Assembly: GCA_963701105.1 (NCBI GenBank)
Contig: OY969565.1
Location: 102,396 to 166,395, forward strand
Direction: 5' to 3'
DNA length: 64,000 bases
DNA from: an uncultured Actinomycetota bacterium
GTDB lineage: Bacteria > Actinomycetota > Thermoleophilia > RBG-16-64-13
Position 1 is the first letter of the stretch; each line of letters starts with the position of its first letter. Below the pieces are notes generated by a model. The model worked only from the letters and a program-made list of their open reading frames with translations, ran no database searches and had not been told where the DNA came from. Shown in pieces: positions 23,676 to 40,389 of the stretch. Made by a program: the position numbers and the translations under genes.

Positions 23676-23787
23676 GTAGGATAGTCTACGCCGTCGCCCG
23701 AGTTGCGGCTACCTTCCGGCACCCCCATCGTCTGTTGGCTTGAGATTTGGTGGAAGGTCCGGCAAGAATTGAAAAAGGGGGACTAAA

Positions 23788-23814
23788 GGTACAAAATGGT
23801 CATAATAATGTACC
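23788..23814. promoter_or_regulatory. inverted repeat GGTACA-15 nt-TGTACC upstream of the antitoxin gene (candidate operator)
   Basis: GGTACA at 23788-23793 and TGTACC at 23809-23814 in an AT-rich stretch containing CATAAT/TAATAAT, 23 nt upstream of ATG 23837. Confidence 0.3.
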
Positions 23815-23836
23815 GTTTTGCCTGGGAGGGAGCGCG

Positions 23837-24091
23837 ATGACCACAGTCACCGCTAAACAGCTGAAGGAAGCTTCGGCTGATGTCTTGAGCCGCGTCCAAT
23901 ACGGACATGAACGCATCGTAGTCACGCGTCATGGCAAGGAAGTCGCAGCTGTGGTCTCGATTGAAGACGCTCGTCTGCTTGACCGCCTGCAGGACGTGCT
24001 CGACGTTCATGATGCTCTCGCAGCGATTGAAGAGGCCGAGCGCGAAGGCACAGTCAGCCTCGGCGACTTGCGCAAGAAGCTCGGCCGCTGA
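23837..24091 (+). CDS. type II antitoxin, Phd/YefM family
   Basis: 84 aa from ATG 23837 after GGGAGGG. AKQLKEASADVLSRVQYGHERIVVTRHGKEVAAVVSIED is Phd/YefM-like. Confidence 0.85.
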   Translation: MTTVTAKQLKEASADVLSRVQYGHERIVVTRHGKEVAAVVSIEDARLLDRLQDVLDVHDALAAIEEAEREGTVSLGDLRKKLGR

Positions 24092-24097
24092 CGGTCC

Positions 24098-24394
24098 GTG
24101 GCTTACGAGATACGGATAGCGCCCGCCGCAGAGCGAGCAATCGGGAAACTGTCCGCTCAGATTCAGGTTGCGGTCCTAGAAAAGCTTGAGGAACTCGCCG
24201 AAGATCCCCGACCGCCCGCCTGCGAAAAGGTGAAAGAGCTGGCGCAGTACGGTGTGTTTCGCGTGAAGGTGGGAAAGGACCATCGCATCTTGTACCAGGT
24301 GAAGGACGAGGTCGCCTTGATTCTCGTTGTGAAGGTTGCCGATCGGGAGGAAATCTACCAGCGCCTGGCTGATTTGAAGCGTCTGTTGAAGTAG
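24098..24394 (+). CDS. type II toxin, RelE/ParE family
   Basis: 98 aa, 6 nt after the antitoxin. FRVKVGKDHRILYQVKDEVALILVVKVADREEIY is RelE/StbE-like. Confidence 0.8.
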   Translation: MAYEIRIAPAAERAIGKLSAQIQVAVLEKLEELAEDPRPPACEKVKELAQYGVFRVKVGKDHRILYQVKDEVALILVVKVADREEIYQRLADLKRLLK

Positions 24395-24514
24395 CCCCCT
24401 GTCGGGCGACCCTCCTGCGCCAATGTCCGGAGCCCTCCAGGGGGACGTTCAGTCTGATATTGTCAGCCCAACGTCACCCCACGCGGCGGAGTCATCCGAA
24501 CTAGGCGAGGGATT

Positions 24515-24742
24515 ATGACTTTTGGCGAGTATGCTCTTGCTGCCCTTGTCGCGTTTGGCGATTTCCTGGTCTTCTTGGGCGCATGGCTCATGATGCTCTT
24601 CGCCTGGAGACGATTCCGGACCAGAAAGAAGCGATCCTTATCTAGTTATCTCCTGCTTTTCGCCTTCCCCGTGGGGATGATAATCATTTGGCTCACTGTC
24701 GGTCTCATGTACATCCTCTTCTTTGGAATACCGGAAGGGTAG
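24515..24742 (+). CDS. small membrane protein, two TM helices, unknown function
   Basis: 75 aa. Two hydrophobic helices flank RRFRTRKKR. Lower-GC islet. Confidence 0.45.
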   Translation: MTFGEYALAALVAFGDFLVFLGAWLMMLFAWRRFRTRKKRSLSSYLLLFAFPVGMIIIWLTVGLMYILFFGIPEG

Positions 24743-24750
24743 GTGAATGA

Positions 24751-25665
24751 GTGAGTCAATATGAGATGAATCGCATATGGAGCTGGAGGCCTTCGGTTAG
24801 AGTGAAGATCGTTCTCTTAGTGATCCCGATCGCCCTCGCGGCAGGGTTGGTGCTCGGACAGCACTCGAACGGGTCGGCGTCAGGATCACCGGAGGAGGCC
24901 GTCAGAGTGTATCTGGGTGCATTGGCGAGCGGGGACAAAGTCGCTGCGGATGCTGTGCTCTCCTCGCAAACGAGAGGTCATGCGTCCGAAGCAGAGGAAG
25001 ATGAGGCCTTCAACCTTGGGGGCATTGCAGCCTCCGGGGAGATCTCCGTCAACGGCTCCCGCCCCTTGGATGCAGTCAACGTTCTCGTCAAAGTTGGGTT
25101 CGTCGGCCGCGACGGAACTACTCAGACGCTTGAGATCCCCTCTGCGCTCGAAGACGGGTCGTGGCGGGTGAAGCCGATCACCAAGTCCATGATGACTCGT
25201 AGGCTCGAGGGGCCCTATCCGGCGGAGGCGCAGATGGCCAACGGAACACTGCGCGTCGCGGTGGGAGGGCTTGTGTTCTGGAAAGACCGGCCGTCCATCG
25301 GCCTGGACATCGAAGGAATCAATGTTGACGACAAGGTGATTCAAGTTTCGTGGCGGAAGTTCACAGCCACCCTCTCTGACGGGCAGACAACGTGGGCCGG
25401 AGACGTTTCCGTCTATTCGGACAACAACCCATATGGTCCGCGCGACCCGGCGGATGTCAGTCCTCCTCCTCTTGCTCCGGGGGGCCACATGATCATGCAT
25501 TTCGAGCTGGGCGGCGGGCAGCAACTGTCTGCCTCTGGGCCCTGGGCAGTGACCGTCCGCGACGGCGACGGAGAAACAGCCGAGATGAAGATGGAGCCTG
25601 CCATGTCGGATGCGCTGGTGATGGACCGTTGGCTCACGCTGTCCGGTGAGGAGAAGGCTTTCTGA
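24751..25665 (+). CDS. membrane-anchored hypothetical protein
   Basis: 304 aa. N-terminal TM anchor KIVLLVIPIALAAGLVLG. An EEAVRVYLGALASGD segment resembles DUF4878-type domains. The C-terminal beta-rich half is unassigned. Confidence 0.55.
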   Translation: MSQYEMNRIWSWRPSVRVKIVLLVIPIALAAGLVLGQHSNGSASGSPEEAVRVYLGALASGDKVAADAVLSSQTRGHASEAEEDEAFNLGGIAASGEISVNGSRPLDAVNVLVKVGFVGRDGTTQTLEIPSALEDGSWRVKPITKSMMTRRLEGPYPAEAQMANGTLRVAVGGLVFWKDRPSIGLDIEGINVDDKVIQVSWRKFTATLSDGQTTWAGDVSVYSDNNPYGPRDPADVSPPPLAPGGHMIMHFELGGGQQLSASGPWAVTVRDGDGETAEMKMEPAMSDALVMDRWLTLSGEEKAF

Positions 25666-25908
25666 GCGACGGCGTCTTCCGTGGTTCGGCTGCTCGGAAC
25701 CTAGGCCGGTTCCGCAGTTGGGGGCTGAGCGCTCGGAGCCGGCTGACGCCGGTCGAAAAAGAGATCATGGTGGCGCCACCTGACGGCGGCTGACTGGACG
25801 ATTAGCATCAGGCGGGGGCGCGCCGCCACGATCTGTGGGTCGTGCGGTTAGGTCGCGCCTGCGCCGGGTACCGCCAACGAGAACACAGACGAGAAGGAAG
25901 GGGTCCCG

Positions 25909-27048
25909 TTGGAGCTTCGCCAGGTCGACCACGCCGCCATCGCTCCGATGCGCGAGCAGAAGCTGCTTCACTATCACCTCCCGTTGCTCCCCGATTTCCA
26001 CACCCATCTCGCTCATCACGCCGAGGCCTGGCAGATCTGGGACGCCGAGAGCGCGGTCGGTTACGTGCTCGCTCTAAGAGAACCGCAGGGAGACCACGAG
26101 CACGTCACCCTCATCGAACTCTTCCTGACCCCGCCCTACCGCGACTCGTACGAGGACGCCGTGGCCGCGACCAGGGATCAGATCGAGCCGCGCGCTTATC
26201 TGGTACGCAGCGACGACTGCACGTACGTGACCGCCCTCCTGGCTTCGGGGTATCAGATGGAGGTGAGCATGGCGGTGATGGCGGCGAAGGTCGTAATGCG
26301 GCCTCAAGAAGAGCACGGTCTGAACCTGACGCCGCTCGACTATCCGCATCTGCGGGCGGCGCACGATCTGTATCTGCACGTGCGGGGAGTGGAGCAGGCT
26401 CCGACCTACTCCGAGTTGGAGGCCCGCATCGAGGACGACGCGCTGTGGGTGCTCACCGACCACGACCAGCCCATAGGACTGGTGGCGAGGGAGCCCAGCG
26501 AAGGGGACCGGTACTGTCTGCTCGATATCATCGCGCCGCACGCCAGGAGGGAAGCGCAGCTGTGGGGACTGCTCACTGCCGGCATCATGATCGACGAGGA
26601 AGGTCGCACGGCGGCGGCGCTCCTGGACATGCGCGATATGGACAAGATCGACGTCTATCGGCTTGCTGGATACTACACGGCTGCGACCTACTTGGTCTTC
26701 TACGACGCGGAGGCCGGCCGCCCCAGCGTGCCCATCATCGAACGAGCCGAGCTGTGGGAGATGATCCAAGCGGACGAGCCCTTCCACCTCATCGACGTGC
26801 TTGGCAAAGAACACTGGGCTGAGGGTCATCTGCCCGGCGCCGAATGGGCGGACTTCAAGAGTCTCGTGAAGAAGATGCGCCGCTACAAGAAGGACGAGAA
26901 GATCGTCCTCTACTGTAACGACTACATATGAGAGGCTTCAGGCATCGCAGCCGATAAGCTGCGACAGTTAGGCTACACCGACGTGTCAGAATACAGGGCC
27001 GGGCTGGACGACTGGGTGAGGGCAGGCCTGCCTGTGGAGAGGGGCTGA
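25909..27048 (+). CDS. selenoprotein: tandem GNAT-like repeats fused to a rhodanese domain with C-x4-U active-site loop (TGA 26929-26931 read as Sec)
   Basis: Track ORF 25909-26931 stops at TGA inside a rhodanese domain. Reading through in frame gives ...HLIDVLGKEHWAEGHLPGAEW...KIVLYCNDYI-U-EASGIAADKLRQLGYTDVSEYRAGLDDWVRAGLPVERG*, the intact C-terminal half of the rhodanese fold. Hairpin 13 nt downstream. The same window carries a Sec-type selD. TTG 25909 start is tentative (ATG 25948 alternative). Confidence 0.7.
26945..26964 (+). promoter_or_regulatory. candidate SECIS hairpin for the rhodanese selenoprotein
   Basis: TCGCAGC-CGATAA-GCTGCGA, a 7-bp perfect stem with 6-nt loop, starting 13 nt after UGA 26929-26931. 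Confidence 0.45.
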
Positions 27049-27423
27049 ATGGGACTCTTTGAGCGCATACTGGGGCGGCGGCCTGCAGATTCGGTCGTCC
27101 TCTACCATTCCCCCACCTGAGGGGACTGCCACGAAGCCAGAAGGTTCTTCTCGGCACATGGAGTACAGGTGGTGGCCCACGACGTCACCGCGGGCGAGGA
27201 GGTGCGACGTCGCATGGAGGCGCAACTCGGGCGGGTGGCCACGCCCGCCATCGTGATCGGGCAGCGCGTGTTCTGGGGATTCGAAGACAACAAGCGTGAT
27301 ATCGCCCAACTCCTGGGAGTCGGCATGGACGCCGACGGGAGCGAGTCTGCGCCCGACGCCGCCGCCTCCGACGTAGCCGGGGCGTCCGATGCCGCGGCCT
27401 CCGATCCTGGGGCACCGTCGTGA
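27049..27423 (+). CDS. selenoprotein: glutaredoxin/NrdH-like protein with U-x-x-C redox motif (TGA 27118-27120 read as Sec)
   Basis: ATG 27049 directly abuts the upstream stop (TGAATG). MGLFERILGRRPADSVVLYHSPT-U-GDCHEARRFFSAHGVQVVAHDVTAGEEVRRRMEAQLGRVATPAIVIGQRVFWGFEDNK has the Grx fold pattern: beta1-CxxC position, cis-Pro TP, GF. Track ORF 27169-27423 is only its C-terminal part. Confidence 0.75.
27136..27155 (+). promoter_or_regulatory. candidate SECIS hairpin for the Grx-like selenoprotein
   Basis: GCCAGAAG-GUU-CUUCU(C)GGC, an 8-bp stem with one bulged C and a 3-nt loop, starting 15 nt after UGA 27118-27120. Confidence 0.4.
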
Positions 27424-28410
27424 CTTCCCTCGTCGACCGTCGCGAGGTGGAGAAACTGCTGGTGCTTGGCGCTGCTCTCCGGGCGGGGCTCGTAGATGCC
27501 ATAGACGTGCCAGGGGGTCGCACTGCGGAGCAGGTCGCGGCGACTGTGGGAGGCGACGTCCACGCGTGCGGGGTCTTGCTTCATGCACTCACCTCGCTGG
27601 GCGTCGCTGAGGAAACAGAGGGATCGTTCAGGTTGACCCCCTTGGGGCGCCTCCATCTCGTCGAGCCACCTCCCGGCGATCCCGTGCCACCGGAGTTAGA
27701 ACGCTCCTCGCTCTTGCACCAACTCCACAAGTTCGGAGGGTGGTTGCGCCTGCCGGAGATCGTGGCCGGCGACCGCGGGCAGTCGCGCGTCAAAGAGCCG
27801 GAACGCCTCCGTTCTTTCGTGCGCACGATGGGGGAGGGCGGTCCCGCCGTGCCGGAGGAAGTGGTCGACGTGGTGTCTGGCGTACGCGAAGGAAGGAAAC
27901 GACCAGCGCGAGCCCAGGGACATGATCGACGTTGGCGGCGCCGTGGGCCATATGGCCCGGGCCTTCGCCGACCGGGGCCTGCGAGCCACGCTCTTCGACC
28001 GGCCCGATGTGCTTCCCGAGGCCCGCGAGTTCCTGGGCGCGGGTGCCGAGGACATAGCCATGGAAGGCGGGGATTTCAACGTCTCTCTGCCCGCGGGCCC
28101 CTTCGACTTGGCCTACCTCGGTAACGTGTACCACATCTACGGGCCTGAGAAGCTTCAGGCGCTCACCCTCCGCGTGTTCCAGGCGCTCCGCCCGGGTGGC
28201 GTGATCTGCGTGCGTGACTACGTGTGGGGGCGGAGCCCGCGGGCAGCCATGTTCGCCGTCAACATGTTGCAGGCGACCGCGGACGGGGGCGTATGGCGTG
28301 ACGACCAGTATCGTGCTTGGTTCGAGGCCGCGGGATTCGAAGACGTGCGCGTCGTCGACTTGGAGCGCTCTCCGAATCAGCTGATCCTGGGTCGGCGTCC
28401 GCCTGCGTGA
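27420..28410 (+). pseudogene. O-methyltransferase (family 2 type: wHTH dimerisation domain + class I SAM MTase), apparent +1 frameshift near 27874
   Basis: Track ORF 27420 (frame 0) encodes the N-terminal domain up to ...PEEVVDVV. Track ORF 27922 (frame +1) extends upstream as ...LAYAKEGNDQREPRDMIDVGGAVGHMARAF...DRPDVL...LRPGGVICVRD (SAM-binding motif). Deleting one nt in GTGTCTG near 27874 restores one ~330-aa protein. GTG 27420 overlaps the Grx-like stop (GTGA). Confidence 0.65.
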
Positions 28411-28536
28411 CCTCGGCGTGGAGCCCTACCGTTCTGTTAGACTGGACTGGGCCCGAAGAGCGGGCCCGCGCCAATTCTCGATGGCCGGCTCCGCACGGGA
28501 GGGTCGCGATTCGAACGCACCGAAAGGAGATCATCT

Positions 28537-29034
28537 GTGGCCGACACAATGACGAACCTCGCTGATGCTTTTGCCGGGGAATCCCAGGCGAATCGGAAGT
28601 ATCTGGCCTTTGCGAAGAAGGCCGAGGAAGAGGGAATGCCGCAAGTCGCCAAGCGCTTTCGCGTGGCGGCATCTTCGGAGACCATTCATGCCCATGAGCA
28701 CCTCAAGGCGATGGGCGAGTTGAAGGATACGAGCGCCAATCTGGCTGCTGCGATCGGCGGCGAGAACTACGAACACAGCGCGATGTATCCGGAGTTCATG
28801 GAGATCGCAGTGAAGGAAGACAATGAGGATGCGAGGTTTTCGTTCTTCGCGGCCAACATGGCCGAGAAGTTCCACGAGAACATGTTCAGAGAGGCCGCCG
28901 AGAAGATGTCGGACCTTCAAGACAGTCGCTTTTTCGTGTGCCAGGTGTGCGGGATGACGTATGAACACGAAACGCCCGACGCATGCGTGGTCTGCTCCTC
29001 ACCGAAGCACCGCATCGAAGAGTTCGTCGAGTAG
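28537..29034 (+). CDS. rbr: rubrerythrin
   Basis: 165 aa. Diiron ferritin-like domain (E-x-x-H pairs: ESQANRKY, ETIHAHEH, ENYEHSAMY) and a C-terminal rubredoxin-like CQVCG...CVVCS. Confidence 0.9.
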   Translation: MADTMTNLADAFAGESQANRKYLAFAKKAEEEGMPQVAKRFRVAASSETIHAHEHLKAMGELKDTSANLAAAIGGENYEHSAMYPEFMEIAVKEDNEDARFSFFAANMAEKFHENMFREAAEKMSDLQDSRFFVCQVCGMTYEHETPDACVVCSSPKHRIEEFVE

Positions 29035-29041
29035 GGCGACT

Positions 29042-29251
29042 GTGCCGGCGGTCCCCGACACCCTCGAAGACGCCGCCCGCTGTGTCTGTGGCAGTTGTCC
29101 CAGTAAGCCGGAGGAGCTGAAGGGCTTCTATTGTGCGCGCGGTGCGAGCAGGAGCACGGTGCTGCGTCGAGGTTGCCTCTGCAATCAGTGCGACGTGCAG
29201 CTCGACTTCGATCTCACGACCGAGTACTACTGCGAGGGCAACGCGTCCTAG
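29042..29251 (+). CDS. DUF2769-like small Cys-rich protein
   Basis: 69 aa from GTG 29042. CVCGSCPSKPEELKGFYCARG...GCLCNQCDVQLDFDLTTEYYCEG matches the DUF2769 Cys pattern as I recall it. Confidence 0.55.
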   Translation: MPAVPDTLEDAARCVCGSCPSKPEELKGFYCARGASRSTVLRRGCLCNQCDVQLDFDLTTEYYCEGNAS

Positions 29252-29389
29252 GCGGGTGTGGCCGGCGCCCAAGGTGGTCGGGGTCGGCATCTCGACCGTG
29301 TAGCGTACATCCGCGTTGCGTATACTGTGAGCCGGCGGCCCCATCGGGCCGCCGGTCCCACGTAGAGCGCATGGAATCCGAGGTGCTTC

Positions 29390-30598
29390 ATGGAGCGGTA
29401 TCTACTGAAGGAAAACATATGGTGGGTGGGGGCGATCGACTGGAACTGCCGTGACTTCCATGGTTACGAGACACCACGAGGCACCACCTACAATTCGTAC
29501 CTGATCACCGATCAGAAGACCGTCTTGGTCGACGGGGTCCGCTCGGGCTTCGGCTCGGAAACGCTGCGGCGCATCAACAGCTGTTGCGACCCGCGTGGAA
29601 TCGACTACTTGGTCATCAATCACGTGGAGATGGATCACTCCGGGGCCATCCCGGGACTCGTCCGCGAGATGTCGCCGGTCAAGATCTTCTGCTCCAAACG
29701 GGCGAAAGACGCACTCGCTATCCTTTATGCCGAGGAAGGCTTCGGGGAGTGGGATATCGAGGTGGTGGCCACGGGCGACGAGATCTCACTCGGCACCTAC
29801 ACGCTCACCTTCCTGGAAGTACCCATGCTTCATTGGCCGGACAGCATGCTTACCTACATCAAAGAGGCCAAGGTGCTACTGGCCAACGACGGCTTCGGCC
29901 AGCACTTGGCCACATCGAAGCGATTCGCCGACGAGGTCGATCTGTCCGTGGCGATGGATGAGGCGGCCAAGTACTACGCCAACATCCTCATGCCTTTCGG
30001 TGCCCAGGTGCAGAAACTAGTGAAGACGGTGGGCGAGATGGGTCTGGAACTGGATGTCATCGCCCCCAGCCACGGAGTCATCTGGCGGCGTCCGCAGGAC
30101 GTGCAGGCCATCATCCAGTCATACGTCGATTGGAGCTCCTTCAAGGCGGAGCCGTCGGTGGCCTTGATCTTCGACACCATGTGGCATTCGACGGAGAAGA
30201 TGACGCGGGCCATCGAAGACGGCGTGGCGCAAGAGGGAGTCGCCTGCTCGGTCATCAAGCTCAGCAAGACCCCGCTGGCGGACGCCATTCAGACCATACA
30301 GGCCTGCCGCGGCTTCTTCGTGGGCACTCCCACGCTCAACAACACCATGTTGCCGTCGGTAGGTGCGTTCATGACCTACATCAAGGGGCTCCGTCCCAAG
30401 CAGCGCGTGACGGGTGCTTACGGTTCCTTCGGCTGGGGCGGCGGCGGCGTGAAGCAGGTAGACGCCGGGCTGCGCGAGCTTGGGCTCGAGGTGGTCGATC
30501 CGCTCGAGTTCAAGTACGTGCCCTCGAGCGCGGATCTGGCCGCCTGTGAAGAATACGGGCGCGAGATCGCCCGCCGCGTCAAGGCCTGGGAGGCCTGA
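29390..30598 (+). CDS. FprA-type flavodiiron protein (A-type flavoprotein)
   Basis: 402 aa. Metallo-beta-lactamase-like diiron domain (NSYLI, INHVEMDHSGA) plus a C-terminal flavodoxin-like domain. Confidence 0.9.
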   Translation: MERYLLKENIWWVGAIDWNCRDFHGYETPRGTTYNSYLITDQKTVLVDGVRSGFGSETLRRINSCCDPRGIDYLVINHVEMDHSGAIPGLVREMSPVKIFCSKRAKDALAILYAEEGFGEWDIEVVATGDEISLGTYTLTFLEVPMLHWPDSMLTYIKEAKVLLANDGFGQHLATSKRFADEVDLSVAMDEAAKYYANILMPFGAQVQKLVKTVGEMGLELDVIAPSHGVIWRRPQDVQAIIQSYVDWSSFKAEPSVALIFDTMWHSTEKMTRAIEDGVAQEGVACSVIKLSKTPLADAIQTIQACRGFFVGTPTLNNTMLPSVGAFMTYIKGLRPKQRVTGAYGSFGWGGGGVKQVDAGLRELGLEVVDPLEFKYVPSSADLAACEEYGREIARRVKAWEA

Positions 30599-30637
30599 GG
30601 GCACAGTAGGACCGGACCTAGTAGGACCGAAGCGGCA

Positions 30638-30677
30638 GAATTCAGAACGGGGGCCCAGTGGCCCCCGTTCTGAATTC
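30638..30677. terminator. perfect 18-bp stem / 4-nt loop hairpin between convergent genes (bidirectional terminator candidate)
   Basis: GAATTCAGAACGGGGGCC-CAGT-GGCCCCCGTTCTGAATTC lies between the fprA stop (30598) and the convergent gene stop (30721). No U-tract. Confidence 0.5.
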
Positions 30678-30720
30678 GTACTGGTTCGCCGGGTGCTCCG
30701 GCGTGCTTCCTCTGCGTGTC

Positions 30721-31368
30721 TTAGCGTTCTCCGCGCATAACGCCAGGACGTTGGATCGCCGAGTGGTTCTTGGGAGGCCTGATCTCGCGGAACTTGTCCA
30801 ACTCGTCGAGGGAGTCGAGGCGGTTGTAGATCTCGACCCAGATGCAGGGCTTCTCGCTGTCCACCTCGCACATGCCGTGGTTGGTGCCTCCGCATGGACC
30901 GTTCAGCAACCCCTTGGGGCAGCGGGTCACCGGGCAGATGCCCCCGGTCCAGTCGAGGATGCACTCTCCGCAGGTGGAACACTTCTCTTCGAAGTTCATG
31001 TGCCGCTGGGAGTTGCCCAGGAACAGACTGTCGTTCGACGGGTAGACTGGGAGATCGGTGGCCTCGACGACGGACTGCACGCCGGCGCCGCAACTCATGA
31101 CTACGACCGCGTCGGCCTTGGCCAGCTGCTCCTTATGCTTGCGGAAGTGGCGTTTGACGTCCAGTTCGTGGCAGGGGGCATAGACCACCGAGGACCCAAC
31201 GGTATGGTGTCCGTCTTCCTCGAGGATCTTGCCGAGTTCCTCGACCTCCCACTCACCGCCGGTTTGGCACTGAGAGGAGCACTGTCCGCAGCCCACGAAG
31301 AAGATGTTCTTGTGCTTCTCAAGCATCTGCGAGATCTCTTCGATGGGCTTCTGCTTGGTGATGATCAT
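30721..31368 (-). CDS. methylenetetrahydrofolate reductase C-terminal domain-containing protein (MetV-like, Cys-rich)
   Basis: ATG 31368 after GGAGG. FFVGCGQCSSQCQTGG and CPKGLLNGPCGG are typical of the MTHFR_C family. No metF is adjacent. Confidence 0.75.
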   Translation of the reverse strand: MIITKQKPIEEISQMLEKHKNIFFVGCGQCSSQCQTGGEWEVEELGKILEEDGHHTVGSSVVYAPCHELDVKRHFRKHKEQLAKADAVVVMSCGAGVQSVVEATDLPVYPSNDSLFLGNSQRHMNFEEKCSTCGECILDWTGGICPVTRCPKGLLNGPCGGTNHGMCEVDSEKPCIWVEIYNRLDSLDELDKFREIRPPKNHSAIQRPGVMRGER

Positions 31369-32141
31369 GCGTCGTCCTCCGAGTTGTTGCTGCCCGTATC
31401 CGTCTGTGCCGCTTCTGACCGGAGCCGCTCGGCGGCGCCGTTTGTTACTGCTTCGAAAACAAGAGTGCATACGTCATGCTCGCCGCGACGCTTGTGCTCC
31501 GCCAGGGCGAAGGGGCGGTCGCCGTTGGAGAGCAGACCGGCCACGATGGCCTTGTCGAGGAGACACACCAGGCGCGGCTGCCGGGTGGCGACCTCACGGA
31601 ACAGGCAGTTGCCGGTGTGCACCGTCACGCGATCAGCCTCTACCTCGAAATGGATGTCGGCCCCCGCTTGAGAGAGCGGAGCCAGCCGTTCCTCGACCGA
31701 GCCGTCGTTGGGCGCGGTAGAGGCGAGTTGACGTCCGAAGTCGCGCCCGATCTCGCCCACCAAGATCTCGCCGGCCTCTCCGAACCGTTCAAGAGTATTC
31801 AGCAGGAGTTCCGCCAGCATCTGGTACTGCCGCACGGGTTCCTGCAGATCGAGCCGCGTATCGCTCCGCCGGTAGACCTTAGGGGGTCGCCCGCCCTCCG
31901 CTCGGTGCAGGAAATCCGACACAAGTAGGCCCGTGTCGGTGAGCTTCTCGAGGTGAGCCCTCGCGACCGTCCGGTGCACCCCGAACGTGGCTCCCACATC
32001 CGCGGCGGTGACGGGTTCGGCAGAATCTGCAACGTACTTGAAGATGCCTCTGCGCGTTGGATCGCCGAGCGCGTCCGCAAGCACATCCAATTGAGAGTCG
32101 GCCGGCAGAGACAGAGATGTGTTGAGTCGTGGCCTCTTCAT
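31365..32141 (-). CDS. ArsR-like winged-helix transcriptional regulator with extended C-terminal domain
   Basis: 258 aa. LADALGDPTRRGIFKYV...VTAADVGATFGVHRTVARAHLEKLTDTGLL is an ArsR-type wHTH. Stop overlaps the downstream ATG (ATGA). Confidence 0.7.
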   Translation of the reverse strand: MKRPRLNTSLSLPADSQLDVLADALGDPTRRGIFKYVADSAEPVTAADVGATFGVHRTVARAHLEKLTDTGLLVSDFLHRAEGGRPPKVYRRSDTRLDLQEPVRQYQMLAELLLNTLERFGEAGEILVGEIGRDFGRQLASTAPNDGSVEERLAPLSQAGADIHFEVEADRVTVHTGNCLFREVATRQPRLVCLLDKAIVAGLLSNGDRPFALAEHKRRGEHDVCTLVFEAVTNGAAERLRSEAAQTDTGSNNSEDDA

Positions 32142-32314
32142 GCAGGTAGTCTAGCCTATGGTGACCGTCCGCACAAGGGTTTTGTGTGTGGATATGCACG
32201 TAACCTCGCGCGCAGGAGTGGCGCACCCCGGCCGTGGGCGTCGCTTTGGGTCTACTGGTACAATGGCTCCGCTGCTGGCGAAGGCCGCGAACGGTGCATG
32301 GAAGGAGTCATGGG

Positions 32315-33673
32315 ATGGCGAAGTACGTGATCGTCGGGAACGGTGTCACAGGTACACGGGCCGCAGAAGTGATCAGGCGCACGGATGAGTCGGCCGACGT
32401 GACCATCCTCACGGAAGAGCCGCACCCGTTCTATCGCCGTCCCCAGTTGGCGGACTTCGCCTCCGGCGACATCGGTGAGGCGCGTATGTGGGCCCGCAAG
32501 ACCTCCTTCTACGACGATAACCGGCTGGATCTGAGGCTCTCGACGAAGGTCGTGGGCCTAGATGTCGATGCGCACACGCTTGCGCTGGCCGACGGAGGCT
32601 CCGTCCCCTACGACCGGCTGTTGGTGGCCACGGGACGCGACGTCACCTCGGCGGGGCTATCGGGCGGCGACCTCGCCGGCGTCAACCATTTCAAGACCCT
32701 GGACGAAGCTCGGGCGATCCGCGACCTTGATGGCTCCGGCAAGACGGGGGTGGTGTTCGGCAACGGCATGGTCGCCCTGGAGTTGGTGCGCGCCCTTACC
32801 GCGTCCGGCTTCTCGACCACCTATCTTGTCCCCACCGATAGCCTCTGGCCGGAGGTGCTCGACAAGGATGCAGCGGACATAGCCCTCAGTCGCCTGCATG
32901 CGGCGGGCGCGCGGGTGGTCTTCGGCGCCGGGATCGAGACGGCGCGCTCCTCCGACGGGTGCGCCGGAGAGGTCGTCCTCGCTGGTGGGGATGTGCTGCG
33001 CGCCGACGTGTTGGGCCTCTGCTCGGGATACACTCCCGCCATCGGCTTTCTGCCCGACGGCGGTGCCGGCTTGGTTGCGGGCGCCGGGTTCGCAAGCCCG
33101 TGGGCCGATGTGTTCGTGGCCGGCGACGTGACGGTCGACGCCGGGAAGAACTACTTCAACTGGCTGCGTTCGTGGCGGCAGGGAGCAGCGGCCGGAACCC
33201 TCATGGCAGGCGGCGCCGGGGCTGACGAGCCGGCTGCCATAGACACCTTGAACATGCAGGTCCTCGGTCTCAGTCTCGTGACGCTGGGGCGTACCATCGC
33301 CCCCTACCGCTCGGGCTATTCCGAGATGCGCGGGGATTACCCGTACGGGGAGTTCTACAAGAAGTTGGTCTTCTCATCTGACGACGTGCTGGTGGGGGCA
33401 CTGCTGCTCGGCAATGTGGCAGAAGCCGCGGCTCTCGAGCAGGCCATCCGCGCGGGGACGAAGAAGGCCGATCTCCCCGATGACCTGCTCCACCAGATGT
33501 TCGACGTGACCTACAAGACGACGTACGTGGGTGTGCAGTGTCCGGTGTGCCGTCACGAGATGCAGTTGGCGAAAGGTGCCGTGGCAGGCGACCTGGTGAC
33601 GTGCCCGGTGTGCGGCACTGATTTCAACCTCGTGCAGGGCGACGTGGGCTTCAAAGCCCGCATCGCCAGGTGA
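32315..33673 (+). CDS. NAD(P)/FAD-dependent oxidoreductase (pyridine nucleotide-disulfide oxidoreductase fold) with C-terminal CxxC...CxxC zinc-ribbon/rubredoxin-like tail
   Basis: ATG 32315 after GAAGGAG. KYVIVGNGVTGTRAAE (FAD GxGxxG), GVVFGNGMVALE (NAD GxGxxA) and a C-terminal QCPVCRHEMQL...TCPVCGTDF. Confidence 0.8.
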   Translation: MAKYVIVGNGVTGTRAAEVIRRTDESADVTILTEEPHPFYRRPQLADFASGDIGEARMWARKTSFYDDNRLDLRLSTKVVGLDVDAHTLALADGGSVPYDRLLVATGRDVTSAGLSGGDLAGVNHFKTLDEARAIRDLDGSGKTGVVFGNGMVALELVRALTASGFSTTYLVPTDSLWPEVLDKDAADIALSRLHAAGARVVFGAGIETARSSDGCAGEVVLAGGDVLRADVLGLCSGYTPAIGFLPDGGAGLVAGAGFASPWADVFVAGDVTVDAGKNYFNWLRSWRQGAAAGTLMAGGAGADEPAAIDTLNMQVLGLSLVTLGRTIAPYRSGYSEMRGDYPYGEFYKKLVFSSDDVLVGALLLGNVAEAAALEQAIRAGTKKADLPDDLLHQMFDVTYKTTYVGVQCPVCRHEMQLAKGAVAGDLVTCPVCGTDFNLVQGDVGFKARIAR

Positions 33674-33680
33674 TGATCGC

Positions 33681-34265
33681 ATGGCTGTGACCGTCCTCGG
33701 CCTCGCGGGCAGTCCCCGGAGGAAGGGCAACACCGAGACCCTCCTGGACTGGACCCTGGCCGCCGCCGAGGCGGCGGGTGCCGAGGTGTTGAAGTTCCGC
33801 CTGCGTGAATTGGATGTGGGATGCTGCATAGCCTGCGACGGCTGCGCGGACACGGGCCAGTGCATCGTGGATGACGGGATGGACGCCATCTTCCCTCACC
33901 TCCGGTCGGCGGACAGCATCGTTCTCGCGGCCCCGATCTTCTCCATGGGCTTGGCCGCGCAGGCCAAGGCGATGGTAGACCGGTGCCAACCGTTCTGGGC
34001 CCTGAAGTACGTCCTCAAGCAACCGGTGCGCCCCGAGGGTTCCATGGAGCGTCGAGGCGCCTTCCTGTCGTGCGCCGGCACCACCTACAAGACCGTCTTC
34101 GACGGAGCCAGGCAGGTCGTCAGCTACTTCTGGCACGTGCTCGACGTGCACCCCGTCGGGGATCTTCTCTGCCCCGGCGTGGACGCCAAAGGTGAGATCT
34201 TCGACCATCCCTCCGCCAAGGAGATAGCCGAGGACATCGGGCGCCGCCTGGCGGAGCCTCGGTAG
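33681..34265 (+). CDS. flavodoxin-like fold FMN reductase / iron-sulfur flavoprotein-like
   Basis: 194 aa. VLGLAGSPRRKGNTETL (NADPH-dependent FMN reductase signature) and Cys cluster CCIACDGCADTGQC as in Isf-type proteins. Confidence 0.8.
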   Translation: MAVTVLGLAGSPRRKGNTETLLDWTLAAAEAAGAEVLKFRLRELDVGCCIACDGCADTGQCIVDDGMDAIFPHLRSADSIVLAAPIFSMGLAAQAKAMVDRCQPFWALKYVLKQPVRPEGSMERRGAFLSCAGTTYKTVFDGARQVVSYFWHVLDVHPVGDLLCPGVDAKGEIFDHPSAKEIAEDIGRRLAEPR

Positions 34266-34302
34266 GCCGAGAGAGGGCCGCGTCTGCGGCTTCGGAGGCG
34301 GC

Positions 34303-35001
34303 ATGGCGGCACCGATACGCATCCTGGTCGTCGACGACGACGACAACGTCCGTCGCCTGGTGGCCGCCTATCTTGAGCGCGAGGGCTACGACGTCTCCCA
34401 GGCAGCGGACGGCAACGCCGCCATCAGGTCGGTCGAGACCGCGGCGCCCGACCTGCTCATCCTCGATCTCATGCTGCCCGGCCCGGGCGGACTCCAGGTC
34501 GCCCGTCGGCTGAAAGACTCCGTAGGAGTGCCGGTGATCATGCTCACCGCCCGCGGCGAGGAAGACGACGTCCTGCGGGGTTTCGAGGCCGGGGCCGACG
34601 ATTACCTGGTGAAGCCGTTCAGCCCCAAGGTTCTGGTGGCCCGCGTGCGCGCCGTGCTGCGGCGCGCCGGTATCGGCACCGACGACGACACCGCCCCTCT
34701 GGTGCGAGGACCGCTGGTCATGGACGAGCGTAGCCGCATGGTGACGGTCGACGAGACTCCCATCGAACTCACGGCCATCGAGTTCGACCTCTTACGCGCC
34801 CTCGCCGACCATCCCGGCTGGGTGTACTCACGCGAGCAGCTGCTCGAGCGCGTCTGGGGCTACGACCATCTGGGCGATTCGCGCGTCGTGGACGTGCATG
34901 TGGCGAATCTCCGCAAGAAGATCGGCGACGATCCCTCCCAACCCCGTTTCATCCGCACCGTGCGGGGCGTCGGCTACAAATTCCTGGTGCCCGAGGAATG
35001 A
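34303..35001 (+). CDS. OmpR/PhoB family response regulator
   Basis: 232 aa. ILVVDDD...DLLILDLMLPG receiver domain plus a winged-helix C-terminus (RTVRGVGYKF). Confidence 0.9.
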   Translation: MAAPIRILVVDDDDNVRRLVAAYLEREGYDVSQAADGNAAIRSVETAAPDLLILDLMLPGPGGLQVARRLKDSVGVPVIMLTARGEEDDVLRGFEAGADDYLVKPFSPKVLVARVRAVLRRAGIGTDDDTAPLVRGPLVMDERSRMVTVDETPIELTAIEFDLLRALADHPGWVYSREQLLERVWGYDHLGDSRVVDVHVANLRKKIGDDPSQPRFIRTVRGVGYKFLVPEE

Positions 35002-36134
35002 AGCTGCGGGCGAAGCTCTTCTTTGCCTTTCTCGGGGTGATCGCCGTGGTCGTCGTGGTCGTGGCCGCTCTGGTGCGGAGCATCGCCGTGGGAGCCGTCT
35101 CCTCTCACATGGGCTCCGGCATGAGCGGGATGATGGGCGGGATGATGAGCGATCTGGAGACGGCGGTTGCGCGCGGAGTGAACGAAGCCCTGCTGTGGGG
35201 AGCGTTGGCGGCGGTGGTGGTGGCGGCGGCGGCCAGCTACGTGCTGTCAGGCGTCATCACGGGGACGATCGGTGACATGGCCGCCGCCGCCCGGCGGATC
35301 GCGGCGGGCGAATACGGCCAGCGCGTCGCCCACCCCGCCGACGACGAGATCGGAGAGTTCGCGGACGCCTTCAACGAGATGGCCTCGCGCCTGGAGGCGA
35401 CCGAACGCGTGAGGCGCGAACTCCTGGCCACCATCTCGCACGAGCTTAGGACGCCGCTCACGAGCATCCAGGGCTACATGGAGGGACTGCTCGACGGGGT
35501 GATCTCCGAGGAGCCCGAGACCTACCAATTGGTTCACCGAGAAGCGGCCCGCCTCTCTCGTTTGGTGGCCGACATCGAGAATCTGTCACGCATCGAAGCA
35601 GGGGCCGAGCGCATCGCCCCGGTCGACTTGGAGGTAGCTCCCGTTCTCGAAGGTGTGGCCGACCGCGTGCGTCCTCAATTCGAGCAGAAGCCGATCGCGC
35701 TCAGCGTGGTCGTGGAACCTCTGACGCCGGCCGTCAGGGCCGACGAGGACCGCCTGCTGCAGGTGTTGCTCAACGTCGTGGGCAATGCCTTCAAGTACAC
35801 ACCGCCGGGCGGAGAGGTGACCCTGCGGGCTTCACCTGCGCCCGCCACCCCAACAGACGCTCTCCGGGGTTCGCCTCCCGCGGAACGGATCCTCATTCGG
35901 GTTGAAGACAGCGGTATCGGCATCCCGGCGGCCGATCTCCCTCACGTCTTCGAGCGCTTCTACCGCGTGGATAAGTCGCGGTCGGCTACCGGAGGCGGTC
36001 TGGGTATCGGGCTGGCGGTCGCACGCAGCCTGGTTGAACAGATGGGCGGGTCCATGACCATCGCGAGCGCCCCCGGGCGCGGGACCACCGTCTCCCTCAC
36101 CCTGCCCGCCGCCCGCCCCGCCACGGACAGTTGA
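34998..36134 (+). CDS. sensor histidine kinase (TM-HAMP-HisKA-HATPase)
   Basis: 378 aa. Overlaps the regulator stop. H-box ISHELRTPLTSI, N-box LLNVVGNAFKYTP, G-boxes DSGIGI and GGLGIGLAV. Confidence 0.9.
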   Translation: MKLRAKLFFAFLGVIAVVVVVVAALVRSIAVGAVSSHMGSGMSGMMGGMMSDLETAVARGVNEALLWGALAAVVVAAAASYVLSGVITGTIGDMAAAARRIAAGEYGQRVAHPADDEIGEFADAFNEMASRLEATERVRRELLATISHELRTPLTSIQGYMEGLLDGVISEEPETYQLVHREAARLSRLVADIENLSRIEAGAERIAPVDLEVAPVLEGVADRVRPQFEQKPIALSVVVEPLTPAVRADEDRLLQVLLNVVGNAFKYTPPGGEVTLRASPAPATPTDALRGSPPAERILIRVEDSGIGIPAADLPHVFERFYRVDKSRSATGGGLGIGLAVARSLVEQMGGSMTIASAPGRGTTVSLTLPAARPATDS

Positions 36135-36260
36135 CGACGGAACCCGTGCGGCGGTGGTGTCCGGGGGGCTCGTGGGGCCCGCGCGGCCGGTAGGGTCGTT
36201 GCGGCCGCGGAGCCCGCGCAGCCGGTCGGGCCCGCCGGGCCTGGGAGCCTGGCTGACCCT

Positions 36261-36995
36261 CTAAGCCCGTCCCCGGCGGCCGTGGGGGCAGACCGCCACG
36301 CAGACGCCGCAGATCTCGGTGCCGCTTTCCTGCTTGGCCTCTTCTCGGTAGCGCCTGCAGGCCGCGACGTCCATACGCGACTCGATAGGTTCCGTCGGAT
36401 CGAACGGGCGACCGGTAAAGGCTCGAGCCGGACAGGCGTCCACGCAGAGCGTGCAGGCCCCGCAGTCGCGCGCAAGAGGGGCTCCCGCCTCGAGTGGGGC
36501 GTCCGTGAGCACCGTCACCAGCCGCACTCGGGGGCCGGCCTCCGGGGTCACGAGCAGGCAGCTCCTCCCGATCCAGCCGAGCCCGGCCCTGCCGGCAACC
36601 AGCTTGTGTGAGAGGGGGCCTCGATAACCGGCCGCGTCGATAGCGAGTGAGGTGGGGATGGACATGGCGGCGTGACCTGCCTCCTGCAGAGCTGCCGCCA
36701 CCAGGGTCGCCGCCTGGTCGAGCAGCCCGTTGACGATCTTGTAGATGTGGAAGCCGTAAGTCTTGGCCACCAGGGGCGCTCTGTGTTCCTCGGGGAGGCG
36801 GTCCACCACCGTGTCCTGGAGGCGGAAGACGATGGATACGGCGCGTGGGAAGGCGGCCAGCTCCTCGTCTCCCTGGGCGCGCACCGCGGCCGAGACGGCA
36901 TCGTCTTCGAGCGAGGCTATCCCCACGCGGTGCGCGCCTAGTTGCACAGCGATGCGCGTCACGCGCGCGGTGAGATCGTGTGGGTCCGGTGTCAC
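36261..36995 (-). CDS. 4Fe-4S dicluster protein, QueG/reductive-dehalogenase-related fold
   Basis: 244 aa. LGWIGRSCLLVTPEAGPRVRL, CGACTLCVDACP and CGVCVAVCP motifs. Confidence 0.65.
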   Translation of the reverse strand: MTPDPHDLTARVTRIAVQLGAHRVGIASLEDDAVSAAVRAQGDEELAAFPRAVSIVFRLQDTVVDRLPEEHRAPLVAKTYGFHIYKIVNGLLDQAATLVAAALQEAGHAAMSIPTSLAIDAAGYRGPLSHKLVAGRAGLGWIGRSCLLVTPEAGPRVRLVTVLTDAPLEAGAPLARDCGACTLCVDACPARAFTGRPFDPTEPIESRMDVAACRRYREEAKQESGTEICGVCVAVCPHGRRGRA

Positions 36996-37053
36996 GATCC
37001 CCCTCCGACGATTCCCCCTCCGACAGTGCCCCCTCCGACGACGAGCACGATCA

Positions 37054-37632
37054 TCAGGTCTCGACTCCGGTCCCGAACGACTTCCACATGCGCGATTCCG
37101 TGGGCCCTTCTTGTCCTTGGTACTTGCTCTCCATGGCCTCGCAACCGTACGGTCGCGCGGCCGGCGAGGAGAGGCGCGCGAACGAGAGCTGGCCGATGGG
37201 CATGCCCGGGTAGATGCGGATGGGAAGGTTGGCCACGTTGGAGAGTTCCAGCGTGATGTGGCCGGAGAAGCCCGGGTCTATCCACCCGGCGGTGGCATGG
37301 CACATGAGGCCCAGGCGGCCGAGCGAACTCTTCCCTTCCAACCTGGCGACGTAGGCCGACCCCAAGGTGACCCGCTCGACCGTGGATCCCAGCACGAACT
37401 CGCCGGGATGGAGCACGAACGAGCCGGTGTCGGATATCTGCACGAGCTCGGTGAGATCGTCCTGGCGCTCCCGCGGGTCGATGCAGGTATAGAGGTGGTT
37501 AGAGAAGATCCTGAAGCGGGCATCTACTCGGATATCGATGCTCGCAGGCTGAAGCATGCTCTGCTCGAAGGGTTCGAGGGAGATGTCTCCGGCCTCGAGT
37601 GCGGCTAAGATGTCCGAGTCCGAGAGGATCAG
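37054..37632 (-). CDS. dcd: dCTP deaminase
   Basis: (L)[20 protein letters not shown]...ASIDIRVD...[17 protein letters not shown]. No ATG/GTG/TTG at the conserved N-terminus. CTG at 37632 follows GGAAGG, so the start is uncertain. Confidence 0.8.
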
Positions 37633-37819
37633 GAGCTTCTGCCTTCCATCGCTGTCTGGTAGCCTGCATGGTGTGGCGGGTGGCAGCGAGCGGCGGTGAC
37701 GCGGAACTGAACCGCCGCTGACGGCCCCGTCGCTGACGATTCTATCGTGGCGGCCGTGCAGGGGCCAGACGGTTGGGTGCGGGTTCTCGAGAGAACCGCC
37801 TTGGCGAGGCCTCAGACGA

Positions 37820-38023
37820 ATGGAGAACGCGGTGACGAACACCCTTAAGACGTGTATAGAGTGCGGCAAGCCCATGGTGGATCGGGTCGAGGAAGAGGAG
37901 CGCACTGGGACCGGTGGCAGTCTGTCGACGGGAGAGTGTGACACGTACCGCATCTGGTCCTGCCAGAACAAGGACTGCGTGTTCTACGGGAGCGATATGT
38001 ACCGGGAGCAGATAGCACAGTAG
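37820..38023 (+). CDS. small zinc-ribbon-like protein, unknown function
   Basis: 67 aa. CIECG...C...CQNKDC. GC-rich third codon positions support coding. No homology established. Confidence 0.35.
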
Positions 38024-38115
38024 AATCGAGCAGCTGAAGTGACAGCCCAGCCGGGCGCCGGGTCCGGTGGCGCCGGAGTCGGTCGCGACGGTCCCATTTA
38101 CAGGAGGTCCATAAG

Positions 38116-38352
38116 ATGGTCGAGATACACTATTGCGAGAACTGCGACGAGCACGCTGCTGAAGTCGTGCTCAGCGGACCAGGGGGAGAGTCAACCTACC
38201 TCTGCACGTCCCCGGAATGCATGATGGCCGCCGGTATCTGTCCGAGCTGTCAGATAGATCTGGAAGTGCACGATTCTGAGACGGGAGAGAAACTCTACTC
38301 CTGTCCACAGTGTGACTATGAACGCACCTACGAGGAGATCGGGCAGCCGTAG
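38116..38352 (+). CDS. small Cys-rich protein (two CxxC pairs), unknown function
   Basis: 78 aa. AGGAGG 8 nt upstream. YCENC...CTSPEC...CPSCQ...CPQC. Confidence 0.4.
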   Translation: MVEIHYCENCDEHAAEVVLSGPGGESTYLCTSPECMMAAGICPSCQIDLEVHDSETGEKLYSCPQCDYERTYEEIGQP

Positions 38353-38369
38353 CGGGAAAGGAGTTATCG

Positions 38370-38558
38370 ATGGCCGGCAAGAGGTTGTACAGGTCACGCA
38401 CTGAGAAGATGCTGGGCGGCGTATGCGGCGGGCTGGCGGACTACCTGGATATCGACGTCACCATCATACGAGTGCTCTGGGTGCTCGCGAGTATCCTGGG
38501 CGGCAGTGGCGCCCTTGCCTACCTCGTCCTGTGGATCGTCATACCGCGGGAGCCGTGA
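38370..38558 (+). CDS. PspC domain-containing membrane protein
   Basis: 62 aa. LYRSRTEKMLGGVCGGLADYLDIDVTIIRVLWVL is the PspC domain signature. Confidence 0.8.
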   Translation: MAGKRLYRSRTEKMLGGVCGGLADYLDIDVTIIRVLWVLASILGGSGALAYLVLWIVIPREP

Positions 38559-39090: not shown

Positions 39091-39265
39091 GTCCCCGTGA
39101 ATCTAGTGCCGCTGGGTATGTGTGTCAAGCAGGAGTGGCAGCCCGCGAGTGAGCATCGGTGGCGCGCTGAGGCGGCCGCCTTGACGGCCCGACTCTACGC
39201 CCGGCTCGACGTCCCGTCTTGACGCCCCGCCTTGGCGGCCCGCCCGCTTGTCTGGTAGCTTTGTC

Positions 39266-39289: not shown

Positions 39290-39321
39290 CCCTGTGTCCG
39301 CATCTCGAGGAAGGAGGGTCG

Positions 39322-40389
39322 ATGCCGCAGAAGCCACCACGGTTGACTACGCTTTCGCACGGTTCCGGCTGAGCGTGCAAGATCGGCCCCAAGGACTTGG
39401 GGCGAATCATAGCCCAGCTGCCCCCGGCTGATGACCCTGCGCTACTGGTGGGCACCAACACGGCGGACGATGCCGCGGTCTACCGTCTTAGCGACGAATT
39501 GGCCCTGGTGCAGACCGTGGACTTCTTCACCCCGGTGGTGGACGACCCATACGACTTCGGGCGTATTGCCGCGGTGAACGCACTCTCGGACATATACGCG
39601 ATGGGCGCCACGCCCCTCATAGCCCTGAACATCGTCGCGTTTCCGGTGGACATCCTGCCCCTCGACCACCTGGCGCAGATCCTGCGGGGCGGAGCAGACG
39701 TGGCTCGAGATGCGGGCATGACCATCGTGGGGGGGCACACCATCGACGACCGCGAACCCAAGTATGGGCTCGCGGTCACAGGGACGGTGCACCCCTCGGC
39801 TTACGTCACGAACGCGACGGCGAAACCCGGCAACGTGTTGGTCCTGACCAAACCCTTGGGCACGGGCATCGTGGCCACCGCCATCAAACGAGGAGTGGCC
39901 GACCCCGAGGTCGTGGCGGCGGCCACGCGTTCCATGACCGAGTTGAATCGCGACGCGGCCGCGGCCGCCCTGACGGCGGCCGCGGATTCCATGACCGACG
40001 TCACCGGCTTCGGCCTGCTGGGGCACCTTCTGGAGATGTGCGACGGCAGCGCTTTGACCGCCGAGTTGTGGTTCGAGGCCCTGCCTTGGCTCCCCGGAGC
40101 CGTGGACTTGGCCATAAGCGGGGCCGTGCCCGGTGGCACCCGGAGGAATCTGGACTACGTCTCCCCCCGCGTCGAGTGGGGCGACGGCTTCCAGGAGCAC
40201 GAGAAGCTCCTTGCCGCCGATGCGCAGACCTCCGGGGGAATGCTCATAGCAGTGCCGGAGGAGCGGCTGGACTCGCTCCTCGCCGACCTGAAAGCGCGAG
40301 GGACGTCGGCGTGCGCGGTCGTGGGTCGCATGCGCGAGAGGATCGACCCCGCGATCGTGGTGCGTCGCTCCTCCGGCGGGGGAGAATGA
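39322..40389 (+). CDS. selD: selenide, water dikinase (selenophosphate synthetase), selenocysteine-containing form (TGA 39370-39372 = U17)
   Basis: The track starts at TTG 39397, but the frame is open upstream apart from one TGA. ATG 39322 after AAGGAGGG gives MPQKPPRLTTLSHGSG-U-ACKIGPKDLGRII..., which aligns with E. coli SelD RLTQYSHGAGC17GC19K20. Hairpin 13 nt after the UGA. Confidence 0.9.
39386..39403 (+). promoter_or_regulatory. candidate SECIS hairpin for selD
   Basis: GCCCCAA-GGAC-TTGGGGC, a 7-bp perfect stem with 4-nt loop, starting 13 nt after UGA. Confidence 0.5.

Follow-up and report, generated by a model that had tools for sequence, protein, structure and literature searches.

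Several described groups of selenoproteins resemble the locus presented here. Selenoproteins labelled 'rhodanese-like domain-containing protein' were catalogued as forms 1, 2 and 4, with the motifs UxxS or UxxG, in a 2026 review (PMC13188914), and two further rhodanese selenoproteins are represented by NF041203 (rhodanese_LYCAU, form 3, motif CxU) and NF045694 (TsoB, form 5, motif UxxxxU). Glutaredoxin (Grx) selenoproteins with a UxxC motif are exemplified by the Grx of Clostridium oremlandii (Kim et al. 2011, as cited in PMC13188914), and selenophosphate synthetases that are themselves selenoproteins are covered by TIGR00476. Here we describe two adjacent genes in a 64-kb stretch of DNA from an uncultured actinobacterium of the class Thermoleophilia (64,000 nucleotides of contig OY969565.1, below called the window). 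Gene 1 encodes a fusion of a GNAT-fold module with a rhodanese domain and gene 2 a Grx-like protein, and each is crossed by one in-frame TGA. Almost certainly both are genuine selenoprotein genes, whose UGAs at codons 341 and 24 are predicted to be recoded as selenocysteine (Sec) through SelB and tRNA-Sec, with the help of a stem-loop that follows at a distance of 20-23 nt. To the best explanation as a whole, which joins this recoding to the domain fusion, the gene context and a frameshift reading of the neighbouring methyltransferase gene, we assign a probability of about 0.8. The two genes and their predicted Sec codons are located as follows.

25909..27048, plus strand: gene 1, predicted selenoprotein of 379 aa that begins with TTG and ends at an ordinary TGA stop; tandem GNAT fold over about residues 1-270, rhodanese domain over residues 280-371
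26929..26931, plus strand: predicted Sec-UGA of gene 1 (U341), codon 341, five residues past the canonical rhodanese catalytic Cys336
27049..27423, plus strand: gene 2, predicted 124-aa glutaredoxin-like selenoprotein; starts at the ATG of TGAATG, the start overlapping the gene 1 stop
27118..27120, plus strand: predicted Sec-UGA of gene 2 (U24), codon 24, first position of the U24-G-D-C27 redox motif, in the context ...YHSPT-U-GDC...

The TTG start of gene 1 is preceded by GAAGGAAGGGG, which forms the ribosome-binding site, and homologs of the product begin at MELR. The internal TGA stands in the context IVLYCNDYI-U-EASGIAADKLRQLGY, giving C336-x4-U341 within the motif Y-C-N-D-Y-I-U-E-A-S, and the Pfam Rhodanese domain (PF00581) extends across it with 54.6 bits against a gathering threshold of 22.2. 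The DNA was compared among the 27 species-representative GTDB genomes that carry the gene, all of them Thermoleophilia, Gaiellales or unclassified Actinomycetota metagenome-assembled genomes. Codon 341 is TGA in 26 of these species and TGT (Cys) in one (locus L023), and in none is it TAA or TAG; moreover, the 38 codons past the TGA are kept in frame across the loci, with the conserved sequence EA[SGA]xIAADKLRQLG[FY]. A protein-database search yielded 67 members of the family. Cys occupies the Sec column in three of them (P0032, P0041 and P0044, with YCNG[LF][AR]-C-EA..IAADKLRQLGF), and the other 64 end at the TGA, exactly four residues after Tyr-Cys.

A similar picture was obtained for gene 2. 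Pfam Glutaredoxin (PF00462) matches residues 16-74, again across the TGA, with 51.4 bits versus a gathering threshold of 22.9, and the Sec codon is TGA in 15 of the 17 Grx-bearing loci and TGT or TGC in the other two (L004 and L034). Four full-length homologs in the protein database (P0121, P0123, P0124 and P0126) have the Cys form SP[TIS]-C-[LI]DC. One more full-length homolog, P0122, has Arg in this column (SPT-R-LDC), which may reflect a TGA-to-CGA change or an inactive variant; all other database homologs are N-terminally truncated calls that begin past the TGA. Since TGA is kept at the two codons in 26 of 27 and 15 of 17 loci, is never replaced by TAA or TAG, and is followed by conserved in-frame sequence, its conservation is beyond chance. 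Like the Grx selenoproteins of the UxxC type, gene 2 thus combines the PF00462 fold, Sec in the first position of the CxxC motif and Cys-form orthologs; it differs in a low-complexity acidic and Ala-rich tail and in its place between a rhodanese fusion and a methyltransferase gene. The protein reaches no NCBIfam cut-off, the scores being 53.7 against 88.55 bits for TIGR02196 (YruB), 33.9 against 66 for NF041212 (Uxx-star) and 19.2 against 89.5 for TIGR02200 (mycoredoxin).

These data bear out the core of a first-pass annotation of this DNA, made from its letters alone, which had read C336-x4-U341 in the rhodanese domain of gene 1 and U24-x-x-C27 in a Grx-like gene 2, had placed the gene junctions at TGAATG (27046-27051) and GTGA (27420-27423), and had interpreted both proteins as selenoproteins that standard gene callers would truncate. 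The coordinates of both TGAs and both junctions were confirmed, and the selenoprotein assignment is upheld by Cys-aligned homologs at U341 and U24, by the conserved TGAs, and by the SECIS-like hairpins (SECIS, selenocysteine insertion sequence) and the selD gene with its own Sec codon that are considered below. Gene callers do indeed cut gene 1 at the TGA and start Sec-type Grx calls past it, and in NCBI the shortened products carry the names 'rhodanese-like domain-containing protein' or 'hypothetical protein'. For this reason, the proposal that homologs consistently terminating at the TGA would refute the assignment proved misleading: the predicted proteins end there by a gene-calling artefact, and the DNA continues in frame. 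Another example of mis-calling is provided by P0146 (380 aa), a frameshift chimera in which gene 1 sequence continues into Grx sequence, ending ...VIYHSPT just before the Grx Sec-TGA.

The use of selenocysteine by the organism itself is indicated by a third gene, located 12 kb from genes 1 and 2.

39322..40389, plus strand: selD, selenophosphate synthetase, itself a selenoprotein; TIGR00476, 373 bits versus a cut-off of 125

Its in-frame TGA at 39370-39372 lies in SHGSG-U-ACKIG and thus in the classic N-terminal motif G-U-x-C-K. Among the SelD selenoproteins of TIGR00476 this gene is an ordinary member with no notable difference; the list of open reading frames (ORFs) shows only a truncated 330-aa version starting at 39397. 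Because selD with its own Sec-TGA is present in the window, the organism probably uses selenocysteine; the SelB-dependent insertion of Sec at the UGAs of genes 1 and 2 is a step that we infer. TGA is at the same time the ordinary stop of 28 of the 37 genes in the window, therefore UGA is not reassigned genome-wide. A scan for more in-frame TGAs based on the GC content of third codon positions returned only antisense artefacts, and its thresholds missed the three true cases, so that it is not a valid negative.

Each of the three TGAs is followed by a hairpin, and all three hairpins agree with the published constraints for bacterial SECIS elements (PMC13188914), with spacings of 20, 23 and 20 nt for gene 1, gene 2 and selD, respectively, and minimum free energies (MFE) of <= -7.5 kcal/mol.

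26945..26964, plus strand: SECIS-like hairpin of gene 1, 20 nt past the UGA; UCGCAGC-CGAUAA-GCUGCGA with a stem of 7 bp, loop CGAUAA, MFE -16.3 kcal/mol
27136..27155, plus strand: SECIS-like hairpin of gene 2, GCCAGAAG-GUU-CUUCU(C)GGC, 23 nt after the UGA; loop GUU, MFE -11.9 kcal/mol
39386..39403, plus strand: hairpin of selD, GCCCCAA-GGAC-UUGGGGC, 20 nt past the TGA; MFE -16.4 kcal/mol

An Rfam scan of positions 25000-41000 at E<=5 detected no SECIS family and no other credible RNA. As the single-sequence z-scores were weak, we relied on comparative evidence. For gene 1 it is extensive: all Sec-type loci share the stem UCGCRGC/GCUGCGA, closed by a (N)GAUA(A) loop, and synonymous codons over the stem are frozen, ATC, GAT, AAG and CGA being invariant among all 24 sequences and CTG and CAG conserved in 23 of them. 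Two of these codons are rare in the genes of the window (CGA accounts for 8% of Arg codons and GAT for 26% of Asp codons), and just outside the stem the invariant residues Leu+13, Gly+14, Val+18, Gly+24 and Gly+32 are coded by three to five different codons. The Cys-type locus L023 uses GCC GCC GAC AAG CTG AGG CAA for this peptide and has lost the hairpin. Frozen sites in the Sec form together with loss in the Cys form are the pattern expected of a bacterial SECIS. The gene 2 hairpin is weaker evidence, supportive rather than strong. In its stem the rare Arg codons AGA (3.7% of Arg codons) and AGG (8.4%) pair with two Phe codons, and one CG<->GC compensatory pair was found, in four sequences.

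Several observations weigh against this interpretation. None of the folding energies is significantly beyond those of shuffled sequences (z = -1.8 for gene 1, -0.03 for gene 2 and -1.3 for selD); the invariance of the gene 1 stem leaves no compensatory changes to be seen, and the loop of this hairpin starts with GA and not with the commoner G[G/U]; the register of the gene 2 hairpin shifts between clades. In addition, selA, selB, selC and tRNA-Sec were not found within the 64-kb window.

The rhodanese domain of gene 1 belongs to a Y-C-x4-[C/U]-x-x-S subfamily. Cys336 aligns with the catalytic Cys of the solved rhodaneses 6mxv and 3tp9, the active-site loop exceeds theirs by two residues, and Sec341 would lie in this extended loop. 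An exhaustive profile search over 1.84 billion sequences showed that the fused family is small, with 15 representatives at E<=1e-30; the same search returned 37 representatives of rhodaneses that stand alone (about 110 aa) and carry YCxxxxCxxS, and about 13 further stand-alone ones that stop exactly four residues after YC. A protein homology search that used only the rhodanese part as query gave no hits. In locus L036 (535-900) a stand-alone rhodanese has a TGA four residues after YC, VVYCGAFT-U-PAGERAARALQKLGY, and the domain continues in frame (UPAG). With the stand-alone rhodanese selenoproteins gene 1 has in common PF00581 and the Y-C-x4-[C/U]-x-x-[S/G] loop (U-E-A-S in gene 1), so that its Sec position appears to be the one already catalogued for them; the match to the named forms 1, 2 and 4 is inferred from the motif. 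In contrast to these proteins, gene 1 is fused to a 270-residue tandem GNAT module, is limited to Thermoleophilia/Gaiellales-type Actinomycetota, and resides next to genes for a methyltransferase and a flavodiiron protein. The best NCBIfam matches are the two other rhodanese selenoproteins, NF041203 and NF045694; gene 1 falls far below both cut-offs (48.6 vs 115 and 35.2 vs 805 bits, respectively) and lacks their motifs. Although the U-x4-U spacing of TsoB equals the C-x4-U spacing of gene 1, the latter has one Sec and not two, places it at C+5 and not at C+2, and has no DsbD-like fusion.

No Pfam GNAT family matches the gene 1 product, and its N-terminal module was recognized by structure. 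An AlphaFold (AF2) model of the Cys-form ortholog P0032 (pLDDT 91.6) was compared by Foldseek: residues 1-270 match the tandem GNAT 3iwg (E=2e-15), VipF, MAB_4324 and mycothiol synthase MshD (1ozp), with E-values from 2e-15 to 2e-9, and the part beyond residue 270 matches rhodaneses. Gene 1 has the two-domain fold in common with these tandem GNATs but lacks the acyl-CoA motif: motif A (R/Q-x-x-G-x-G/A) is absent from both GNAT halves of the fused family. The second GNAT domain of the stand-alone relatives P0164, P0169, P0174 and P0203, which were compared with positions 25909-26718 of the window, retains an R-G-x-G-x-G motif. Proteins of the fused family have acquired invariant His65 and Cys104 and a nearly invariant His63. 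As the acyl-CoA motif was lost, an acetyltransferase activity of gene 1 was rejected, and the module is probably a pseudo-acetyltransferase that binds a ligand or a partner.

The genes following gene 2 on the same strand provide the functional context.

27420..28410, plus strand: gene 3, family-2 O-methyltransferase (OMT) dependent on S-adenosylmethionine (SAM), domains Dimerisation and Methyltransf_2; starts at the GTG of GTGA (27420-27423)
28537..29034, plus strand: rubrerythrin; in a subset of related loci, intercalated before the flavodiiron gene
29390..30598, plus strand: class-A flavodiiron protein (FDP) of the O2/NO reductase type; in 24 of 27 loci located downstream of OMT, in the same orientation

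Gene 1 and OMT are adjacent on the same strand in all 27 loci, and FDP follows at gaps that range across the loci from about 20 to 350 nt. The Grx gene is restricted to a closer clade (8 of the 27 GTDB loci); missing from most loci, Grx is not an obligatory partner. Thus the three-gene operon of the first-pass annotation does not hold as a unit: what is conserved instead is gene 1 together with OMT and FDP, often with rubrerythrin. A consensus scan for promoters and terminators was uninformative: it found no promoters (0), and terminator-like sites were seen on the minus strand only, at chance level.

The assignment of gene 3 to the family-2 methyltransferases stood, and only its integrity as one intact ORF did not. 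On the frame-corrected sequence both domains exceed their Pfam thresholds (PF00891, 55.7 vs 22.3 bits; PF08100, 29.4 vs 25.6), and the DVGG SAM motif and the YHIY region with the catalytic His are recognizable by eye. In the window, however, Dimerisation lies in the frame of 27420 and Methyltransf_2 in the frame of 27922-28410, the frame being broken near 27868. The sole indel relative to three close relatives (L001, L028 and L029) is one extra base at about 27868, specific to the window, and the gene is intact, with 329 aa, in L028 and L029, whose gene 1 product is 96% identical, as well as in other loci. We think that this is probably an indel error of the long-read assembly. A true pseudogene, in which a real 1-nt insertion has cost the strain this step, is unlikely: the single extra base does break the frame and no obvious homopolymer is found there, but both halves are free of other stops, have high GC content in third codon positions and are 91% identical to intact orthologs. 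Furthermore, a second conserved gene of the window is split, which suggests indel noise in the assembly. This is the NuoN-like Proton_antipo_M gene (52442-53904, plus strand), divided between frames at about 53000-53030, one ORF matching profile positions 1-65 and another positions 84-294. Split FDP genes in related long contigs are likewise typical of long-read indel noise. Programmed frameshifting was considered as well and rejected, as all relatives are single-frame.

Because gene 1 is inherited together with genes for a family-2 methyltransferase and an O2/NO reductase of the flavodiiron type, and frequently also with rubrerythrin, the system most likely serves in the defence against, or the repair after, exposure of an anaerobe to O2, NO or peroxide. 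Mechanistically, Cys336, the canonical persulfide-carrying position, might take up sulfane sulfur or be oxidised, and Sec341 in the same cradle loop could then attack Cys336, forming either a selenenylsulfide or an S-S-Se species, which would make the rhodanese domain a fast redox-active or sulfur-releasing centre. The UxxC Grx-like selenoprotein would reduce that bond in the clade that has it, and the system would act alongside FDP and rubrerythrin in oxidative or nitrosative stress. As a whole, this mechanism is offered tentatively and is somewhat doubtful; speaking against it, it is built on motif geometry and gene neighbourhood alone, and no chemical link is at hand between the methyltransferase and the rhodanese. 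Rather unlikely is a bolder version, in which the pseudo-GNAT-rhodanese(Sec), OMT and FDP would constitute a selenium-dependent pathway of anaerobic Actinomycetota that has so far gone undescribed: for instance, the MshD-like module would bind a low-molecular-weight thiol (e.g., mycothiol), C-x4-U would make or resolve a persulfide or S-nitroso adduct, and OMT would cap the product. If true, such a thiol-binding pathway would tie the chemistry of sulfane sulfur or S-nitrosothiols (RSNO) to O2/NO reduction.

The first-pass annotation had instead suggested, speculatively, a relay or a detoxification and methylation pathway for chalcogens (S, Se, Te, As). Spelled out as a chalcogen or metalloid relay of the rhodanese, Grx and OMT, the rhodanese would carry a persulfide or perselenide and OMT, as an S- or Se-methyltransferase, would lead to methylation and volatilisation. 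We regard this as improbable. It could draw on the invariant adjacency of gene 1 and OMT, on the presence of selD in the same window, on the ability of rhodaneses to carry perselenide (Ogasawara et al. 2001, as cited in PMC5877670) and on the weak PDB relatives of OMT, which include S-methylating enzymes of the DsyB/DSYB type (7wdq, 7wdw). However, the window holds no arsenic (ars), tellurite, selenium-methylation or sulfide-oxidation genes, nor are any conserved among the loci, and the conserved third partner is FDP, with rubrerythrin and an NADH:rubredoxin-oxidoreductase-like gene nearby, so that the neighbours are enzymes of O2/NO/H2O2 defence. As for OMT, it has no NCBIfam assignment, and its PDB matches, all weak (<=52 bits), span O-, C-, N- and S-methylating enzymes, the best being small-molecule O-, C- and N-methyltransferases.

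That the two TGAs are true stops, leaving a 340-aa gene 1 with a C-terminally cut rhodanese and an 84-aa, N-terminally cut gene 2 between untranslated or regulatory flanks, is very improbable. Public gene calls do give products of exactly these 340-aa and 84-aa types, but a rhodanese cut in its active-site loop and a Grx lacking CxxC would be non-functional, the Pfam domains cross both TGAs, the stop is always TGA and gives way to Cys in some orthologs, and the 38 codons past the gene 1 TGA evolve as coding sequence, amino acids being kept while flanking synonymous sites vary. A reading of UGA as a standard amino acid (by Trp or Gly reassignment or leaky read-through), or the TGAs being sequencing errors in a window that does carry indels and frameshifts, can be dismissed as extremely improbable, given the ordinary use of TGA as a stop in the window, Cys as the aligned residue in the hallmark Sec/Cys pair, the TGA kept across 26 independently assembled species and the Sec trait indicated by SHGSG-U-ACK of selD.

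With the selenoprotein assignment of genes 1 and 2, two systematically mis-annotated selenoproteins and a Sec-containing SelD are added for a poorly studied, uncultured class of actinobacteria. All 64 Sec-type database entries of gene 1 are cut in the active-site loop, and the Sec-type Grx entries begin at internal start codons, without the redox motif. Nothing established is overturned: rhodanese and Grx selenoproteins, Sec-containing SelD, bacterial SECIS hairpins and Sec/Cys pairs are all known, and the novelty that the first-pass annotation had implied for the cluster is reduced accordingly, since rhodanese selenoproteins with Sec at what appears to be the same position and UxxC Grx selenoproteins were already catalogued. 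Our literature searches returned nothing relevant on selenoproteins of Thermoleophilia, on GNAT-rhodanese selenoproteins or on a linkage of rhodanese, OMT and flavodiiron genes; the pseudo-GNAT fusion and, in Thermoleophilia, its strict association with OMT and flavodiiron genes appear to be undescribed in the literature searched. This strict linkage to OMT and FDP is a lead on the function of the C-x4-[C/U]-x-x-S rhodaneses, which are widespread.

Some other features of the window may be mentioned. Rubrerythrin and FDP open a redox-stress island at 28537-34265, which further contains a DUF5981 gene (similar to the C-terminal part of methylenetetrahydrofolate reductase, MTHFR; minus strand), an ArsR-type helix-turn-helix gene (minus strand), a Pyr_redox_2 flavoprotein and an FMN reductase. 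The Pyr_redox_2 flavoprotein has a LysW-like zinc-ribbon tail and resembles NADH:rubredoxin-oxidoreductase (NROR). Upstream of gene 1, at 23747-25665, lie a toxin-antitoxin pair of the Phd/YefM-ParE type (23747-24394) and an ORF of 304 aa that matches no family (24751-25665); neither the pair nor the ORF occurs in relative L028 (96% identity), which suggests that they were inserted recently. Finally, ARAGORN places a tRNA-Val at 12189-12269 (minus strand) inside the 3' end of the dnaE ORF (8861-12454, plus strand), whose C-terminal Pfam domain extends to about 12413; either the two overlap or the tRNA call is false.

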